A DNA stretch of 21,831 bases from a virus. Taxonomy: Duplodnaviria; Heunggongvirae; Uroviricota; Caudoviricetes. This document shows positions 2,662 to 18,347 of the stretch, piece after piece. A model generated the notes under the pieces. That model searched no databases, was not told the DNA's origin, and was given only the letters and a program-made list of their open reading frames with translations. A program made the translations under genes and the position numbers. How positions within the stretch are numbered: the stretch's first letter is position 1; each line of letters starts with the position of its first letter. Location of the stretch: IMG/VR virus record IMGVR_UViG_3300042259_000129. One strand, written 5' to 3'.

Positions 2662-4767
2662 ATGTCAATTAGATACGATGATAAATTTGTAAAGACCCCA
2701 GGAATGGAAAATGAATATACACCTGAGATGATATCAGATCTTGTTAGGTGTTCAGAAGATGTTTTGTATTTTCTTAATTTTGTTACTATTGTTACTATCG
2801 ATGGTGGCAGGAAAAAATTAGGGGATCTTCTTTACCCATTTCAGAAAAAAATGATTAAAATGTGTAAAGACAATCGTTATTTGGTTTTCTTGTTCTGCAG
2901 ACAATCGGGAAAGTGCGTTTCTTGGGACACAAAAATAAAAATTAGAAACAAAAAAACTGGAATAGAGGAAGAACTAACTATTGGAGAATTTTTTGATAAA
3001 TTAACAATATCTTCTTTTAATATAGATGATAAATTTGTTGAAAAGCGTTTCTGTGAAGATTATGAAATATGAACCCCAGAAGGGTGAAAAGATTTTTCTG
3101 GGGTTGGCAAAACTATTGAATATGATGAATATAAAGTATCATTATCAAATGGTATAGAATTAATATGTGCAGATAATCATATTTTATTTTCAAATAATAA
3201 AGAAATTTATGTCAAAGATTTAAGTGCAGGCAATTTTATAGAAACAGAAAATGGTGATATAGAAATTTCTAGTATTGAAAAACTAAACACATTTTCTAAT
3301 ATGTATGATTGTTTAGATGTTGATGGGGAATGTTATTATACTAATGGTATAAAGAGTCACAATTCAACTACAGTAGGGGCTTTTGCTCTTTGATATGCAA
3401 TTTTTAATTCTGATAAATTCATCGGAATTGCATCTAATAAAGCAAGTTCAGCAAAAGATCTTCTTAGACGTATTAAGATTATGTATGAGGAGCTGCCTTT
3501 TTGATTAAAACCTGGGGTTATAGAATATAACAAAAATTCCATTGAATTTGAAAATGGATCTAAAATTGAAACTGCTGGAACAACTGAAGACACATTCCGT
3601 GGGAGATCCTGTGTTCCCAAATATACAAAAGTTTGTGTGTGTGATGATAATGGAGATATTTTTTATACAACCATAGAAAAAACAAAAGCAATTTCATCTA
3701 ATATAAATAGATTTATGGGAGATGAAATGAATTTCAAAAATACTAAAAAATATTATATGGTGTATAAAACGACAAATTTAATTAATGGGAAATACTATAT
3801 AGGGTTCCATTCTACAAATGATTTGGATGATGGGTATTTGGGGTCTGGAAAATATATAAGAAGAGCTATTGAAAAATATGGACCAGAAAATTTTAAAAGA
3901 GAAATTATAATGGTGTTTGATAATAAAGAAGATGCAGAATTATTGGAAAGGGAACTTGTGAATGAAGAGTTTGTTAAAGATAACTCAAACTATAATTTAT
4001 CATTGGGTGGTAATGTGTGTATTTTATGTGGAGAAGCAAATGGCTTTTATGGCAGAAAACATTCTGATAAAACAAAAAAGCTCATTTCTGAAAAATCTAG
4101 AAATTATAAACATACTCCAAAAGCCAAAAAGTTAATTTCTATATCATCGAAAGAAAGATGAAAAAACAATGAATATAGGGAAAAACAAATAAAAGCTCTT
4201 AAAAATAGACCTCCAGTAAGTAAAGAAACAAGACAAAAATTATCAAATAAATTAAGAGGAAGAAGACTTTCTTTAGAACATAGAAAAAATATATCTACAA
4301 GTAGACTTTTAAAATTTACAAACATGAATTTAGAAGAATATAATACATGATATAATAAAACATTTACAGAAGAAAGAAATAAAAAATTAAGTAACTCTTT
4401 AAAGGGTCATAAAAAATCAGATGAATGAGTTGATAAAATAAATAGAAATCCTGAAAAAATTCGAAAAACAGCAGAAAAACATAGGGGTATGAAAAGAAGT
4501 GAAGTAACTCGAAAGCGTATATCAAATTCGCGAATAGGAAAGGATGCCCCAAATAAGGGTAAAATTCATATATATAATCCCCTAACATTAGAAACTATAC
4601 AAATCAGTAAAAATCATGAAATCCCAGATGGTTGATTGAAAGGAACAGGGAAAAAGAAAGAGTCCAGAAAAAATACTATTTGAATTCATAATGTAAAAAC
4701 AAAAGAAATAAAAATGTATGATAAAGATAAAAACTTACCAGAAGGATGATCAATAGGAAGAAAGTAA
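2662..4767 (+). CDS. terL: Terminase large subunit N-terminal precursor, 701 aa: extein 1, mini-intein, extein 2, N-fragment of a split intein, GIY-YIG endonuclease; 10 in-frame TGA
   Basis: Continuous frame once TGA=W: YPFQKKM, Walker A RQSGK|intein|STT, AL(W)YAIFN, ELPF(W)LKPG, TFRGRS|CVPKYTKV, then the endonuclease, ending in TAA at 4765-4767. Confidence 0.9.
2914..3363 (+). mobile_element. Cis mini-intein (150 aa, no endonuclease) in the TerL Walker A motif
   Basis: Starts CVSWDTKI after RQSGK, has block B ICADNHIL and block F MYDCLDV, and ends NGIKSHN followed by the +1 Ser. Confidence 0.92.
3610..3690 (+). mobile_element. N-fragment (about 27 aa) of an atypically split intein
   Basis: CVPKYTKVCVCDDNGDIFYTTIEK is an intein block A directly after extein RGRS. 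The rest of the Hint fold is missing from this ORF. The right boundary is approximate. Confidence 0.8.
3691..3729 (+). promoter_or_regulatory. Late promoter inside an RBS/ATG-sequestering hairpin of the GIY-YIG gene
   Basis: ATTTCATCT (3691-3699) pairs with AGATGAAAT (3720-3728). TATAAATA (3702-3709) is in the loop, and the GGAG site and ATG 3727 overlap the 3' arm. Confidence 0.7.
3727..4767 (+). mobile_element. GIY-YIG homing endonuclease (Seg-like) with NUMOD3-type repeats, 346 aa from its own ATG; 6 TGA
   Basis: YMVYKTTNLINGKYYIG, YLGSG, YNLSLGG; repeats such as GRKHSDKTKKLISE and GMKRSEVTRKRISNSRIG; C-terminal IPDG(W)LKG and LPEG(W)SIGR. Confidence 0.9.
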
Positions 4768-5069
4768 TGGAAATATTAACACACAAAGGATTTAAACCAT
4801 TTGATGGGTTTATAAATCAAGGAAAATCAACATTGATAAAATTTGATTTATCAACCAATGAAACTATAGATTGCACACATAATCACAAATTTCTTTTGTC
4901 TGATGGTATTACTTTTAAAGAAGCTAAAGATATTATTGTTGGTGATATTCTTTTTCCAAAAACAACAGTATTAGAAAAAGAATATCAATGGGATGATATA
5001 GAAGTTTTCGACGCATTGAATGTACAAGACACACAATCATATTGAACAAATGGTGTAATATCACACAAT
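4767..5069 (+). mobile_element. C-fragment of the split intein (blocks B, F and G; terminal HN; +1 Cys at 5070)
   Basis: TIDCTHNHKFL (TxxH), VFDALNV, TNGVISHN-C. Confidence 0.88.
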
Positions 5070-6131
5070 TGTTCAATGCTTCTCCTCGACGAGCTAGCCT
5101 TCGTCTCAGATAACATTGCTAGAGAATTTTATACTTCAGTCTATCCAGCAATTTCATCTTCTGATGAAGCAAAAATTATTATTATTTCTACTCCAAATGG
5201 TGTATTCAATCTCTTTCATGAAATTTATTCTGGAGCTGAAACAAGTAAAAACGAATACAAGCATATGAAAGTCACTTGGGACATGATACCTGGTAGAAAT
5301 AAAAAATGAAAAGAAAAACAAATTAAAAACATGGGAAACATACAGAAGTTCAACCAGGAATTTGAGGTCGAGTTTCTTGGGTCATCAAATACCGTTGTTT
5401 CCACTGAAGCCATTGGATATATTAACACTACTCTAGAAGACCCCATTGCTATGGATCTTAATGAAAGACTTAGGGTTTATCTTAAACCAAAAGATGGAGA
5501 AAAATATCTCATCGGTGTTGATCCGTCTAAAGGATCGGGAGCTCATGATGCTTGTATACAAATTTATAGAATAGATTCATTTAAACCAGTAAAATTAGTT
5601 AATGCAGCAACATTCCAGTCCAATGTTACTGACACCTATGAACTTTCTTCTATCATTAATAGATTATCAATTTACTATAATGATGCTATTATCGGTATTG
5701 AGAATAATGCTGAAGGATCCACAGTTTCACAGAATCTTTGGTGGGTCTTTGAAAACCCAAACCTTTATAATTCAGGAAACAAAGAAAACGAGATTGGCAT
5801 TAGAGCAACTTCTTCATCAAAGACAAAAGCTGTTATTACAATGAAGAAACTCATTGAAGATGGATCACTAATAGTTAAAGATAGGGAAACAGCTAAACAA
5901 ATTTCAACATTCATTGAAAAAAACGGAAAATTTTCTTCAAGCGCAGACACCGGGGATGACCTTGTCTCGGCTCTTTATTGGTTATGTTTCCTTATTGATA
6001 CTCAACTTTTTGAAGATGATGTTGACCTATTTAAAAACAAAGAAGAAGATGAGGATGTATGAGGGATTCTAGCAGACATTGATGATGATCACTATCTTGA
6101 AAATGCAGACTGATCTTGAATGAACACATAA
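4767..6131 (+). CDS. terL: Terminase large subunit C-terminal precursor, 454 aa: intein C-fragment (101 aa) plus Walker B and nuclease domain; 5 in-frame TGA
   Basis: ATG overlaps the upstream stop (TAATG). MEILTHKGFKPF...CTHNHKF...SY(W)TNGVISHN|CSMLLLDELAF, IIIISTPNG, FNQEFEVEFLGS, IGVDPSKG, DDLVSAL; TAA at 6129-6131. Confidence 0.9.
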
Positions 6132-6165: not shown

Positions 6166-6600
6166 ATGAAAACATGTCTTGTTCACAGGGGATCAATGGT
6201 TACTGTCAAAGCAGGAAAAAACAACATTTTCAAAATCAGAATTGATCTACTCAAAAATCTTGTTTATAAGAAAAAAGAACTAAACAAAAAATTTCTTGAA
6301 TTAACTACATTAAAAGGGTTTTCCCCTGTATTACTAATCGAAGAAGAAAAAGTACCATCATTAATCAAAATCACACTTGAAGATGGTTTTGCATTTCAAG
6401 TTTCCCATGACACCAAACTTATCCTAGTCAACAATACAGCAGTCAAAGCAAAAAAACTCAATATTTCAAGTATATTATTTGGAAGAAAAAAGATTAAGAA
6501 TATTGAAGAAATAGTTGCTGCAAATGGATTTGAAATGTATTCTATTCAAATGAAAACATCAAATTCAGTATTCGTAGATGATATTGCTATTGAGCTTTAG
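6166..6600 (+). CDS. Free-standing degenerate Hint/intein-like protein, 144 aa
   Basis: Collinear resemblance to intein blocks: (C)LVHRGSMV, ELTTLKGFSPV, IKITLEDGFAFQVSHDTKLI, VKAKKL, EMYSIQM, SVFVDDI. The block B His and terminal HN are absent. The CDS is secure and the fold is a by-eye assignment. Confidence 0.6.
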   Translation: MKTCLVHRGSMVTVKAGKNNIFKIRIDLLKNLVYKKKELNKKFLELTTLKGFSPVLLIEEEKVPSLIKITLEDGFAFQVSHDTKLILVNNTAVKAKKLNISSILFGRKKIKNIEEIVAANGFEMYSIQMKTSNSVFVDDIAIEL

Positions 6601-6687
6601 ATTTCAAATTTAGATTCTAATCCACCCATAATAAATTATAAAATAATAATATAGAAAATTTTTTATATATATTCTATCAATGCATTC

Positions 6688-6753
6688 GGCAGGAAATTGA
6701 ACGTGACTTACCTAGACTAATTTAATCTAAGAAGAAACATTCAATTTCCTGCC
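6688..6753. repeat. 14-bp perfect inverted repeat (hairpin) between the convergent terL-Hint operon and the ncRNA
   Basis: GGCAGGAAATTGAA (6688-6701) and TTCAATTTCCTGCC (6740-6753). Confidence 0.85.
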
Positions 6754-6759
6754 AAACAC

Positions 6760-7297
6760 ATCCCGTTCTCATTACCCCACAAAAGAGCTTTGAAACAGTA
6801 TGCATTGCGGCGAGGTTCCTTATGTTTTCCTACGTTCTGTTTGGTTGATTAAGCCAAGTTCAGGTATGGTCTAGTTTGATCTGAACTTCTTGGGCATTCA
6901 TATGCTCCCAATCTACAAAACGATCTTCCCTTTCCCGTTAATAAATTTTGATCACTAAGAACACTAGCAAAAATCAAAATCGTTACAAGAAACTAGTACA
7001 GTCGGATTCTATCCTCTCCAGCAGATGGCTTTAGGATAACGTCTGCTGGGCATTTATGCCGGTGGCTCATGAAGGGATTGGACCTAGCATGAGTCAAATT
7101 GACACAAAAGTCACTCGCGTGAAATTCATACATCCCCTTTGGTTGCTTCAGGGGCGGATCTTGCATTGTCATTGACAATGGGACAAACATTTTATGAAGA
7201 AGTCGTCCTCACTCGGAAATATTTTACCAAGCGCTCACTAATTAGCTCTTAACCAACTAGCAAGTCCAAACTCTTAATTCCACCTATTCAAATATCA
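6760..7297 (-). ncRNA. Candidate large structured non-coding RNA (about 540 nt, or about 610 nt with the 3' hairpin); family not assigned
   Basis: Higher GC than its flanks and no credible ORF. At least 7 local inverted repeats (6856-63/6881-88, 6945-52/6973-80, 7018-25/7042-49, 7065-70/7088-93, 7134-38/7150-54, 7164-70/7174-80, 7238-45/7253-60) and a possible end-closing helix 7265-75 with 6783-94. Early-type and late-type promoters on the minus strand point into it. Ends are approximate. Confidence 0.65.
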
Positions 7298-7305
7298 ATT
7301 AAACT

Positions 7306-7390
7306 TATTTATAAAATAATTTATCTACTTCGGTATCAATTGTAAACAAAGAATTTTTAAGGTTTACAAGTTAAATTTCTCATTTATAAT
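7306..7390. promoter_or_regulatory. Divergent promoter cluster: minus-strand late (7306-7313) and early (TTTGTTTACA 7350-7341, 17 nt, TAAATT); plus-strand early (TTTACA 7363-7368, 16 nt, TATAAT 7385-7390)
   Basis: Matches the T4 early GTTTAC...TAnnnT consensus and the late TATAAATA consensus. Confidence 0.6.
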
Positions 7391-7431
7391 AAAAACATCT
7401 GGAAAACTCTAAAAAAGAGGATAAAATAAAT

Positions 7432-7499
7432 TATCTAACTATTTCAATAACTTAGGAATCCACCAAGTTTTATGAATATCTAATGATTTCAATAACTTA
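7432..7499. repeat. Two 23-bp direct repeats TATCTAAnnATTTCAATAACTTA with a 45-bp period
   Basis: 7432-7454 and 7477-7499 are 21/23 identical, in a non-coding gap. Confidence 0.8.
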
Positions 7500-7618
7500 T
7501 ATGAAAAATCCAGAAATTATGAAAAAACTGTGTATATTATATTAGTATTTTGAGAGTTTTTCCTAGTTTTCAAGATTTTTAAATTTTAACTAATAATTTT
7601 AATATGTTAGGAGACCAT

Positions 7619-8347
7619 ATGATCACAATGGAATTTCTATATGTAGAATACCTCAAAATGAAAGGAATTATAAATAATAGACCATATAGACTACCAAAGA
7701 ACCCTGATCTTTCATTAGAAAAGCTAAGACAATCTAATCAAGCTAACTATGACAAGATTAAAACACTCTCAGATTATTTTAATACCAAATGGCAAAATAT
7801 TGATCCAATCAAGTATCTTGAAACGGGGTTCAAATTATTCCCAAAATTCACTTATACGAATTTCCTCAATGATAAAATTTTAAAGCAGTACATTCAAAAT
7901 GATAAGATTCAAAAATTTCATTGTGAAGCATGTAAAAAACAAATTTTAAAAAGTTTTAAATTCATGAAAGGAATTCTAAAGAAAGATCAAAGGAATTCAA
8001 TATTAGAATATTGTAAATCTAAAAATGAATTTTCATTAAATGTTGTTAATGATTATATTCGGGGTCATATTGACCCTTATACATTCCTTTATTTACTACT
8101 TAAAAAATATATAATATTATCTATAGATGAGAAAGAAAAAATTTCAGATTTCTTAAATAATATATCAAAATACAGATCTTATGTAAAAGACGAATGGGAG
8201 TTATTTACGAAAATGGAAAAAATTGTAAATGAAAGTTTATTGATCACCGACCCACCCTCTGGTAACTTGATCTTAGGTGATAAAACTTTAGAAGAGATTG
8301 AAGAGGAAAAGAAAAAGTTTAATAAGATGAAGTTGTTAGAGGAATAA
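7619..8347 (+). CDS. Hypothetical protein, possibly a T4 gp59-like helicase loader
   Basis: AGGAG at 7609-7613 favours ATG 7619. Weak by-eye similarity to gp59 in FLYVEYLKMK and VNDYIRGHIDPYTFLYL. The function is tentative. Confidence 0.5.
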   Translation: MITMEFLYVEYLKMKGIINNRPYRLPKNPDLSLEKLRQSNQANYDKIKTLSDYFNTKWQNIDPIKYLETGFKLFPKFTYTNFLNDKILKQYIQNDKIQKFHCEACKKQILKSFKFMKGILKKDQRNSILEYCKSKNEFSLNVVNDYIRGHIDPYTFLYLLLKKYIILSIDEKEKISDFLNNISKYRSYVKDEWELFTKMEKIVNESLLITDPPSGNLILGDKTLEEIEEEKKKFNKMKLLEE

Positions 8348-8350
8348 TCA

Positions 8351-9052
8351 ATGATTAAATATGAAGGTAAGTTGGATAGTTTTGGTTTAGAATTTTGTTC
8401 TGGTGGAGAAGAATCACAATATAGAAACTTTATAAGGTTAGGATCATATTATTTTAGTATTCCTGCTATCATTAAACCAAAAGAATATAAAATGCATTCA
8501 CCAGCCGGAAATTATAGTTATTATGCACGCAGAGAATATGGTTTCTATGTTTTTGATGGTCATGTAATGATTAAATGGGGGGATCAACCAGATTATTTTG
8601 GAGAGATTAAGAATAACAATTATAAATCATTCTTTCTTCCTTGGACCCAATATACATTCAGACATCATAAGATATTTGATTTAAATCATAATGAACTTGC
8701 TGTAGAATATGGTAAACACATTGATAGAGATTGTAAAATATATTCTAGATTACCAAAAGTTACATTTATTCTTGAAGATTATGATGGTGAAGAAATTGAA
8801 GCTACATGCTATATTGAAGAAAGAATGTGGACTAAAGGCGAGAAATGGTGTTCTTGGTTAAAATATTTTACTAAACCTATTGTTAGGAGAAATATAGATA
8901 TAGAATTCAACAAAGAGACTGGTCCAAAAAAAGGTTCTTGGAAGGGTGGTATTATTGGTACAAGTGAAGAAATTGCGCCTAATGAAGCTCCAATAGAAGC
9001 TATTAGAAGATATTGTTCTAAACATAATATGATATATAAAGGAGTAAAGTAA
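8351..9052 (+). CDS. Hypothetical phage protein, 233 aa
   Basis: Long open frame tightly packed with its neighbours, AGAGG upstream, six Trp all TGG. Confidence 0.8.
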   Translation: MIKYEGKLDSFGLEFCSGGEESQYRNFIRLGSYYFSIPAIIKPKEYKMHSPAGNYSYYARREYGFYVFDGHVMIKWGDQPDYFGEIKNNNYKSFFLPWTQYTFRHHKIFDLNHNELAVEYGKHIDRDCKIYSRLPKVTFILEDYDGEEIEATCYIEERMWTKGEKWCSWLKYFTKPIVRRNIDIEFNKETGPKKGSWKGGIIGTSEEIAPNEAPIEAIRRYCSKHNMIYKGVK

Positions 9053-9660
9053 TGAATGACCCATCTGTAGAAGGTTTTATGGAACCGAGCGAATTAGTGG
9101 AAAATGAAACAATGGAATCAAATGATAATTGGTCATTTAAACCGGAAAAATCTAGATTAGTACGTCATGCTATGGACGAGCTTGATTATATCGGAATGAC
9201 AGAAAATAGTCCAGATGATATGAATCGTATGATGAGAAGGCACTTGATTCATATGGTTACTGAGTTTGCTAAAGAAGGACATTCTGGATTCAGTGCTGGT
9301 TATGCTATCACCGCATTAAATAAATTATTTGATTTCAAACCTTTAGGTCCACTTACAGGTAAAGATGAAGAGTGGAATGAAGTATCTGAAGGTGTTTGCC
9401 AGAATAAAAGATGTAGTACTATATTTAAAGATGATACCGGAAGGGCTTGTAATATTGATGGTAGAGTGTTTTGGGAATGGTATACTGATGAAAAAACAGG
9501 TGAAACATATAAATCATATTTCACAAATTATTATAGCAGATTACCGGTAGAGTTTCCTTATGATGTTCCTAATAAACCAATATATGAAGAATGGACCGAC
9601 ACATGGGAAGATATTAGAGACAATAAAGTAGATTGGTGGGAGCTGAAAAATGATAGGTAA
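9052..9660 (+). CDS. Conserved hypothetical phage protein, 202 aa
   Basis: Motif FAKEGHSGFSA...FKPLGPLTGKDEEWNEV...QNKRCSTIFK is recalled as recurrent in phages. The start overlaps the upstream stop (TAATG). Confidence 0.8.
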   Translation: MNDPSVEGFMEPSELVENETMESNDNWSFKPEKSRLVRHAMDELDYIGMTENSPDDMNRMMRRHLIHMVTEFAKEGHSGFSAGYAITALNKLFDFKPLGPLTGKDEEWNEVSEGVCQNKRCSTIFKDDTGRACNIDGRVFWEWYTDEKTGETYKSYFTNYYSRLPVEFPYDVPNKPIYEEWTDTWEDIRDNKVDWWELKNDR

Positions 9661-15324: not shown

Positions 15325-16656
15325 ATGCACAAATATATTGTTCAAAAAATAATCAATACTGGATTTGAGTGTTACTATGTTGGTGGTTTTGTAAGAGACT
15401 CTATTATGGGTATCAAATCTGAAGACATTGATTTGGCAACTAACGCCAAGCCCCATGAATTAGCAATTATTTTTGCTGGAGATAAAATTGACTTTGTTGG
15501 CGAAACCTTCAAGGTTCTTATTGTTAATGGTATTGAGGTTGCTACTTATCGTAGGGATCATTACTTTGGTGGTTCAGACAAGAATTGTAAAATTGAATAT
15601 GCCGAAACTATTGAAGAAGACCTTTCACGTCGTGATCTTACTATAAATGCTTTGGCTCAATGTGCCAAAACCGGTAAGATTATTGATCCTTTTGGTGGGA
15701 TTGATGATATTAAAATGCGGCGAATTCGTTTTGTTGGTGATCCTTATAAACGTATTAATGAAGACCCAAATAGAATGATTAGAGCGGCTCGTTTTGCTGC
15801 AAAGCTTCAGGGGGCCATCCATAATAATACTTTAGAAGCAATTCGCAATTCACATGGGCTGTTCAATAACATTGCAAAAGAGAGGATTTCACAAGAAATC
15901 ATCAAAGCGATGAAGATTAAGAATGCTTCTAATTTTTTTATTGCTCTTCATGACATGAGGTTGCTTCAGTATATTTTTCCTACTTTAGATAAATGTTGGG
16001 AGCATGATGGTGGACCTCATCATGCTGAAGATCTGTTTACTCATATGATGACTGCCGGTGATTATCTATCTACTAGATGTTATATTCTTAAACTTGCTGG
16101 ATATCTTCATGATATTGGGAAAGTTAAAGCTTATGACCCTGTTGAAAGATCTTTTCACGGGCATGAAAAAACTGGGGAATATGGTGTAGAAAAGGAATTA
16201 AAATCCCTTAAATTCTCAAATGATGATATAAATAAAATTAAAGCATATATTCGTTATCATATGAGAAACAATTATGGTAAAGAGAAGAGTATTAGAAAGC
16301 TTGTTAGAGAGCTTAATGAAAGTGGTATAAATTACAGGTCTCATACCAGGTTAAAGTGTGCAGATAGAGCAGGTAATTTCAATAAACCAAATTTCAAGTA
16401 TTCTGAGATTAAGAATATTCTTTTGAAATATGAAAATCTTTTTACTGGGAAAGAGGATTCAGTTTTCTCTATTAAAGATCTTAAGATTAATGGTAATGAT
16501 TTAATTGAAACATTTGATCTTAAACCTGGAAAGATTATTGGGGATATTCTTAGGTTTACTTTGGAAATGGTATATGATAATAAAATTACAAATGATAAAG
16601 AAGATATTTTAAATTTTCTTAAGAATCATTTGGAGGAGATTAAAAATGAATATTAG
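15325..16656 (+). CDS. cca: tRNA nucleotidyltransferase (class II, CCA-adding or CC/A-adding) with HD domain, 443 aa
   Basis: YYVGGFVRD...DIDLAT, EDLSRRDLTINALA, EDPNRMIRAARF, HSG-like HHAEDLFTH, LHDIGK...HGHE, DLKINGNDLI. Confidence 0.92.
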   Translation: MHKYIVQKIINTGFECYYVGGFVRDSIMGIKSEDIDLATNAKPHELAIIFAGDKIDFVGETFKVLIVNGIEVATYRRDHYFGGSDKNCKIEYAETIEEDLSRRDLTINALAQCAKTGKIIDPFGGIDDIKMRRIRFVGDPYKRINEDPNRMIRAARFAAKLQGAIHNNTLEAIRNSHGLFNNIAKERISQEIIKAMKIKNASNFFIALHDMRLLQYIFPTLDKCWEHDGGPHHAEDLFTHMMTAGDYLSTRCYILKLAGYLHDIGKVKAYDPVERSFHGHEKTGEYGVEKELKSLKFSNDDINKIKAYIRYHMRNNYGKEKSIRKLVRELNESGINYRSHTRLKCADRAGNFNKPNFKYSEIKNILLKYENLFTGKEDSVFSIKDLKINGNDLIETFDLKPGKIIGDILRFTLEMVYDNKITNDKEDILNFLKNHLEEIKNEY

Positions 16657-18275: not shown

Positions 18276-18347
18276 TCCGGGATAGCTCAGTGGCAGAGCA
18301 AGCGGCTGTTAACCGCTCGGTCGTAGGTTCAACCCCTACTCCCGGAG
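18276..18347 (+). tRNA. trnN: tRNA-Asn(GTT), CCA not encoded
   Basis: Acceptor TCCGGGA/TCCCGGA, anticodon stem GCGGC..., loop CTGTTAA, T-loop TTCAACC; followed by G-CAA. Confidence 0.93.

Follow-up and report, generated by a model that had tools for sequence, protein, structure and literature searches.

The question raised by this locus is what occupies the gap at positions 6601-7603 of the window (the 21,831-nt stretch of virus DNA analysed here), in which no coding frame was found under code 11 or with TGA read as Trp. A sequence-only reading had proposed a large structured non-coding RNA with early-type and late-type promoters of its own, and the comparative data support it. To judge from related phages, the gap holds a stand-alone RNA gene, about 600 nt long and intricate in its predicted fold, that occurs in a small set of uncultured T4-like phages from wastewater. 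It is by comparison of lineages, not by single-sequence folding, that the element is recognised as a structured non-coding RNA gene, and the patterns of change described below make it nearly certain that a structured RNA has been selected here at all.

The conserved RNA body occupies 6680-7275 on the minus strand (596 nt, nt 1 being 7275) and is kept in seven lineages. The actual 5' end could be as much as about 25 nt upstream of 7275, behind the late promoter box. The 3' boundary had been placed at 6760, but conservation extends 80 nt further 3', to 6680, and these limits decide the outcome of the energy calculation. Taken alone, 6760-7300 folds no better than its shuffles (z = -1.0), whereas 6680-7275 reaches z = -4.2 and the homologues reach -6.1 to -8.7, so that the expected folding beyond shuffled controls was borne out for the corrected limits and failed for the original ones. 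The stronger value is largely due to the long 3' hairpin, which lies outside the stretch first considered. The minus strand folds better than the plus strand in every copy compared. The GC content was indeed elevated, 41.0% in 6760-7300 against 30.9% genome-wide and 14-20% in the two flanks, and only 2.3% of 596-nt genome windows have a GC content this high. The supposed density of short inverted repeats dissolved under the same kind of control: 14 perfect repeats of at least 5 bp were counted against 10.7 in shuffles, and 36 of 200 shuffles reached 14. A credible ORF is absent, as had been noted. Frameshifts or stops interrupt the 65-aa ORF at 6993-7190 in 6/6 homologues, no conserved open frame runs over the RNA body among the homologues, and it is the pairings that they keep.

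Relatives with the same gap were retrieved with the capsid protein and the proteins of the two flanking genes as queries. A full copy was found in seven lineages, all belonging to one clade (the window, L001, L005, L006/L031, L012, L054 and L056; eight copies counted), with lengths of 517-597 nt. Identity across the seven is 55-83%; it is 72-83% for six of them and 55-56% for L056, whose copy is the shortest at 517 nt and whose alignment was adjusted by hand. The RNA body is 76-80% identical, compared with 60-66% for the upstream spacer. No second copy was detected in G000, the virus record to which the window belongs, or in the related genome G001, and none near more distant terminase loci, including that of the recoded relative L035. 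Scans for exact patterns in viral, metagenome and genome collections yielded two IMG/VR relatives and otherwise chance matches, with none outside the clade. Such patterns have low sensitivity and overlook members that have diverged, and absence from bacterial genomes does not follow. L017, L019, L021, L022, L024 and L065-L076 were rejected as members, being chance matches on which our two models of this RNA give no score. BLASTn against cultured phages likewise gave chance matches only, and no host is assignable, because the nearest cultured terminases are just 34-36% identical. The sequencing runs with the element are of wastewater and bioreactor DNA; four DNA runs yielded fragments only and no variants. 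The literature covered holds no description of this RNA, and the text of an IMG/VR screen (PMC10690425), as distinct from its tables, reports 29-151-nt motifs only.

Alignment of the copies gives a conserved, strand-specific predicted fold of about 15 helices, in which a core is tied by three long-range helices and carries exchangeable peripheral arms. Over the full length, 38 of 149 pairs change on both sides among six lineages; the corresponding counts are 12/49 for the core and 23/39 for the 5' 155 nt, where 95% of cells pair, and in each case 0 of 500 shuffles did as well. Shuffled and slid alignments served as covariation controls; all three counts exceed both by a wide margin, and for the 5' 155 nt neither approaches the observed values. 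The 5' domain (7155-7268, minus strand, as are all parts of the RNA given below) is closed by a 4-bp helix, nt 8-11/118-121 (7265-7268/7155-7158), which encloses hairpins P2 to P5 in a predicted five-way junction. This helix is 100% paired and changes from G-C to A-U in L001 and L056, a pattern equalled in 29 of 500 shuffles. Both sides change in 10/12 pairs of P2 (7234-7264) and 5/8 pairs of P3 (7210-7233), which are followed by P4 (7181-7208) and P5 (7164-7180). An anticodon-like loop considered in P4 was dropped for want of conservation. P6 (7134-7154) has a conserved GAA...AA loop, and four of its five pairs are flipped in L056. An early candidate 'P1' (nt 6-10/432-436) was discarded, since nt 9-11 pair better with 118-120, as was a hairpin at nt 445-447/461-463, which is broken in L056.

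Long-range pairings were sought by listing every helix of at least 4 bp compatible with the six close lineages and testing it in L056. Among 51 candidates testable there, four combine a double change with survival, and these are mutually compatible and free of overlap: nt 8-11/118-121 and three that we call PK-A, PK-B and PK-C. PK-A joins 6993-6999, with one bulged base, to 6869-6874 in the loop of P13; it is 100% paired in seven lineages and shows a single A-U to G-C change, in L056. PK-B (6916-6922 with 6833-6839) has 7 bp, is 100% paired, and changes in L056 from C-G to U-A and from U-G to U-A. PK-C pairs the loop of P9 (7032-7035) with 6829-6832, as CCUA/UAGG in six lineages and GCUA/UAGC in L056, and gains two extra A-U pairs in L012. 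The strand 6829-6839 thus pairs successively with its PK-B and PK-C partners. PK-A and PK-C are provisionally true pseudoknots and PK-B a long-range helix; the assignment is provisional because the helices are short, have one or two events each (mostly in L056) and depend on the hand-adjusted L056 alignment.

Around these helices stand P9 (7018-7049), with 4/11 stem pairs changed on both sides, the long irregular P11 (6931-6992), with 7/22, and P12 and P13 (6856-6910), the former with a conserved GA bulge and the latter presenting the 3' strand of PK-A in its loop. Gain and loss affect P7 and P8, the 6762-6799 hairpin and also the tip of the 3' hairpin. P7 and P8 (7054-7122) are optional, P8 being shortened in L005 and both absent from L056, and they covary elsewhere. 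The hairpin at 6762-6799 varies freely in length and sequence; it contains the 3' arm (6783-6794) of the closing helix that had been proposed between the two ends, and none of the five homologues counted keeps that arm intact, each having it deleted or altered, so the proposal was abandoned. CCUCGCC and the palindrome AUGCAU (6800-6815) occur in all copies; the palindrome has three alternative pairings, no unique partner was found for either word within the RNA, and both may be contacts between molecules. The long 3'-terminal hairpin P16 (6680-6761), which has a 20-bp base, is 95% paired, with three double and five single changes.

RNase P and group I RNAs are also built as a conserved core with variable periphery. 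We therefore weighed a new class of ribozyme, acting for instance in trans in tRNA or mRNA processing with the pseudoknotted core as active site. The crossing short helices, the bulged base of PK-A, the GA bulge, the invariant joining strands and the variable periphery would suit such a function, and the phage encodes tRNAs as well as an enzyme of the CCA-adding type. ROOL and GOLLD, though, share the same build without known catalysis, the likeness to RNase P and to group I and II introns stops at the pseudoknotted core and variable periphery, and the specific marks are missing: the RNA has neither a P4 strand of the GAGGAAAGUCC type nor a P7 or domain 5 motif, and its gene is not flanked by exons. 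Together with the searches that follow, this makes a catalytic RNA of a new class unlikely.

Rfam covariance models were run at E ≤ 10 on two divergent copies, those of G000 and L056. Nothing in G000 reached gathering level, and irrelevant hairpins were the only matches at E up to 10. The earlier failure to recognise RNase P, tmRNA or group I and II introns by eye was upheld by the Rfam models and ARAGORN. Both RNase P models (RF00010 and RF00011, types A and B) are silent on G000 and G001 although their controls score, and the CR-I and CR-V motifs are absent by inspection; ACAGAAC, taken at one stage for an RNase P element, is fully paired in PK-B. Neither ARAGORN nor Rfam finds a tmRNA with its tRNA-like domain and tag frame, and a GGGGAUG look-alike is lost in L056. 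A group I intron, with its P3-P7 core and P/Q/R/S elements inside a host gene, has no Rfam match in G000 or L056, and the element has its own promoters and no exons. Group II introns, including circularly permuted forms (PMC8637638), give no RF00029 match at E ≤ 10, and the consensus fold contains no domain 5 hairpin with an AGC or CGC triad and AY bulge. Small ribozymes also had no match at E up to 10 in the two copies.

The size and complexity fall in the range of large ornate RNAs, as had been proposed, and match ROOL (PMC5737381). Like ROOL (Weinberg et al. 2017, PMC5737381; Kretsch et al. 2025, PMC12286853), this RNA is of about 580-600 nt, stand-alone, phage-associated, built of multistem junctions and pseudoknots, modestly conserved in sequence and apparently non-essential. 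The likeness in size, junctions and about three pseudoknots is generic only, here with 517-597 nt and three long-range helices. ROOL has a long helix joining its 5' and 3' ends, whereas this RNA lacks it and ends in a free long hairpin; it also lacks the long unstructured linker of ROOL and adjoins a terminase gene rather than a tRNA cluster. ROOL and GOLLD genes often stand next to tRNA genes, and here the nearest tRNA gene is at 18276, about 11 kb away; none is present in the L005, L054 and L056 loci. With GOLLD it shares the character of a large ornate phage RNA with a conserved core and variable parts. GOLLD is expressed in lytic growth, which for this RNA would follow from the late promoter box; GOLLD is usually of 800 nt, and this RNA is shorter and without a match to the model of the GOLLD 3' domain. 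OLE is likewise ornate and of about 600 nt, but it is encoded on the chromosomes of anaerobic Bacillota, is highly conserved and has protein partners, and its helix order differs.

Such resemblances, the phage location, and the fact that covariance models lose very remote members might favour a far-diverged ROOL, GOLLD or OLE. The models speak against it. At E ≤ 10 ROOL (RF03087) matches neither G000 nor L056 while its control pMP118 gives 130 bits, and OLE (RF01071) finds nothing in G000 and is silent on L056 while scoring 290-553 bits in 46 of the 101 genomes in a sample of Clostridia type; the model of the conserved 3' domain of GOLLD (RF02032) is silent too, with controls that scored only below the cut-off. 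In the reverse direction, our two models score neither ROOL nor OLE. We therefore hold a remote member of these families to be highly unlikely. Between the two options left by the sequence-only reading, a divergent member or a new class, the new class fits better. The best reading is of a family separate from ROOL and GOLLD, matching no described RNA family, with the comparison to GOLLD subject to its weak control; it would be a new family among large ornate phage RNAs, a kind already known.

Both promoter classes lie just upstream on the minus strand where they had been reported, and they are kept in 8/8 copies. The early-type (host sigma70-like) promoter at 7318-7350 consists of TTTACA, 17 nt and TAAATT (TTTGTTTACA at 7350-7341 and TAAATT at 7323-7318), with TTTACA upstream in all eight. 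The T4-type late box TATAAATA (7313-7306) is found 16-46 nt upstream of the RNA in the eight copies. GTTTACA precedes 14 gene starts in G000 against 4.1 expected, and these genes have 4 TGA and 49 TGG; TATAAATA precedes 21 against 3.7 expected, and 16 of the 21 genes have in-frame TGA. These genome-wide counts and the TGA content of the marked genes make the early and late labels valid for G000, and the two classes correspond to promoter classes of T4. On the same strand no gene lies downstream and the next gene is convergent, so the RNA is a stand-alone unit and not a leader. A terminator scan found no canonical U-run terminator, and the 20-bp 3' hairpin probably marks the 3' end. Between the late box and the RNA body, an optional leader is present in L006, L031, L056 and the window (7300-7276) and absent from L001, L012 and L054; in L006, L031 and L056 it carries UUCGAAU, a T-loop-like word. 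A second sigma70-like promoter on the plus strand (7363-7390; TTTACA, 16 nt, TATAAT) stands back to back with the first and faces the 247-aa gene, with a similar one in L005 and L031 only.

The promoters also bear on whether the element works as DNA, for instance as an origin or packaging site, or is a mere two-way terminator. It does lie between convergent units, and the 3' hairpin could stop terminase transcripts. Consistent changes of the G-U type and the strand bias point instead to one RNA strand, the conserved promoters are directed into the element, and termination needs no ornate fold of 500 nt. To such a DNA-level role we give hardly any credence.

The sole constant neighbour in 7/7 lineages is the large terminase gene, which is convergent. 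L005 and L056 lack the intein-like ORF between them, and in L056 the 247-aa gene upstream gives way to a neck-protein gene; as neighbours vary in this way, no fixed partner gene exists besides the terminase. The constant terminase and conserved late promoter might suggest a packaging RNA or a regulator of that gene, and, like phi29 pRNA, this is a phage non-coding RNA encoded near packaging functions. It is, however, three to five times longer than phi29 pRNA, belongs to a T4-type phage and is replaceable by a mobile element. To our knowledge, T4-type packaging motors need no RNA. The RNA gene does not overlap the terminase gene, and the intein-like ORF or a TnpB gene may lie between; related terminase loci do without it. 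The RNA is no more complementary to the genome than expected by chance (six 13-mers), and antisense action was set aside. A packaging or regulatory role is thus very unlikely. The intein-like ORF (6166-6600, 144 aa) resembles by eye a stand-alone intein-type (Hint) domain, has no Pfam or PHROG match, and has close relatives only among those found. The 247-aa gene (7604-8347) is divergent from the RNA; P0012, to which it is distantly related, is encoded immediately upstream of gp32, which we take to be the place of the T4 gp59 helicase loader.

G000 (133,051 bp, 58% complete, 31% GC) has T4-type major capsid, portal and large terminase proteins. Its capsid and terminase frames are open only with TGA=Trp, TGA standing at positions that are normally Trp, and the code applies to the window genes at 1413-2576 and 2662-6131. 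In-frame TGA clusters in late genes and homing nucleases, the pattern described for recoded phages of standard-code hosts (Borges et al., 10.1101/2021.08.26.457843). This suggests another possible role, namely that the RNA helps the infected cell switch to UGA=Trp, with release factor 2 or the ribosome as a conceivable binding partner. Every carrier has in-frame TGA in its terminase, no tRNA with anticodon UCA was found in G000 or G001 even by a loose non-canonical scan, the promoter boxes suggest both early and late production, and Borges et al. (10.1101/2021.08.26.457843) allow for novel RNAs in code change. Yet the tRNA may be absent from the assemblies only, both being incomplete (58% and 69%), and the association of RNA and recoding is not independent, because the carriers form one clade. 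L008 has lost the RNA, and its terminase shares 99.7% identity with a recoded one; the recoded L035 has no copy beside its terminase, and the RNA has neither a conserved anticodon-like loop nor a tRNA fold. A part in the code switch is therefore quite improbable. That the RNA is either the missing tRNA-independent part of that switch or a new catalytic class, instead of a passive ornate particle, we consider distinctly unlikely.

In L008, a low-coverage contig, a 1.3-kb TnpB element stands in place of 667 bp with the RNA and late box, in flanking DNA 99.7% identical to that of L006; the left junction recurs in L009, which comes from another sample. As this near-identical phage has the element instead, the RNA gene looks dispensable. 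ROOL, too, is dispensable in L. salivarius (PMC12286853). The 393-aa TnpB element is mobile within the clade (L008 1058-2384, the end of L009, G000 79705-81068, L001 3266-4590 and L054 3938-5279).

With a probability of roughly one half, we favour an accessory, trans-acting large non-coding RNA of TGA=Trp T4-like phages that would form an RNA particle like ROOL and GOLLD while belonging to a separate family. The host RNA polymerase would start it early and a phage late sigma factor would sustain its transcription, so that it would accumulate through infection. The compact core would fold without a dedicated phage partner protein and form a stable particle, probably a homo-oligomer by analogy with ROOL and GOLLD. 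Acting in trans as particle, decoy or scaffold, it might bind, shelter or decoy a host factor, such as a ribosomal or RNA-binding protein or an anti-phage nuclease, as proposed for ROOL and GOLLD (PMC12286853). It would benefit the phage in some hosts or conditions, and virions would be produced without need of it. Against the oligomer stands raiA RNA, which is large yet monomeric (PMC12286853). Only a handful of large ornate RNAs (ROOL, GOLLD, OLE) are known from bacteria and phages, and what they do is an open question. An unrelated 600-nt family offers an independent test of how common cages are among large RNAs in nature, which the cryo-EM papers leave undecided (PMC12286853). The natural 517-nt variant in L056 delimits the core, the near-identical phage without the RNA is a natural loss for comparison, and the RNA resides in TGA=Trp phages in which no suppressor tRNA has been found so far (two incomplete genomes). 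The reach of these points is that of a narrow single clade known from DNA alone.

Several genes of the window and of G000 deserve mention in their own right. Two anti-defence genes lie side by side, Acb3 at 8351-9052 (CBASS inhibitor, E 4e-51) and Tad3 at 9052-9660 (Thoeris inhibitor, E 2e-37), and neither was called at the corresponding place in the relatives fetched. A tRNA nucleotidyltransferase of the CCA-adding type with an HD domain is encoded at 15325-16656, close to the tRNA cluster. At 76217-76567 of G000 lies a 116-aa protein with a GGQ motif, by eye like a release factor or an ArfB-type ribosome-rescue factor, which would bear on the code switch. The phage also has a Ro60-like protein. 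The large terminase gene (2662-6131) carries inteins and a GIY-YIG nuclease and runs in two overlapping frames split near 4746-4767, and the same split occurs in L056.
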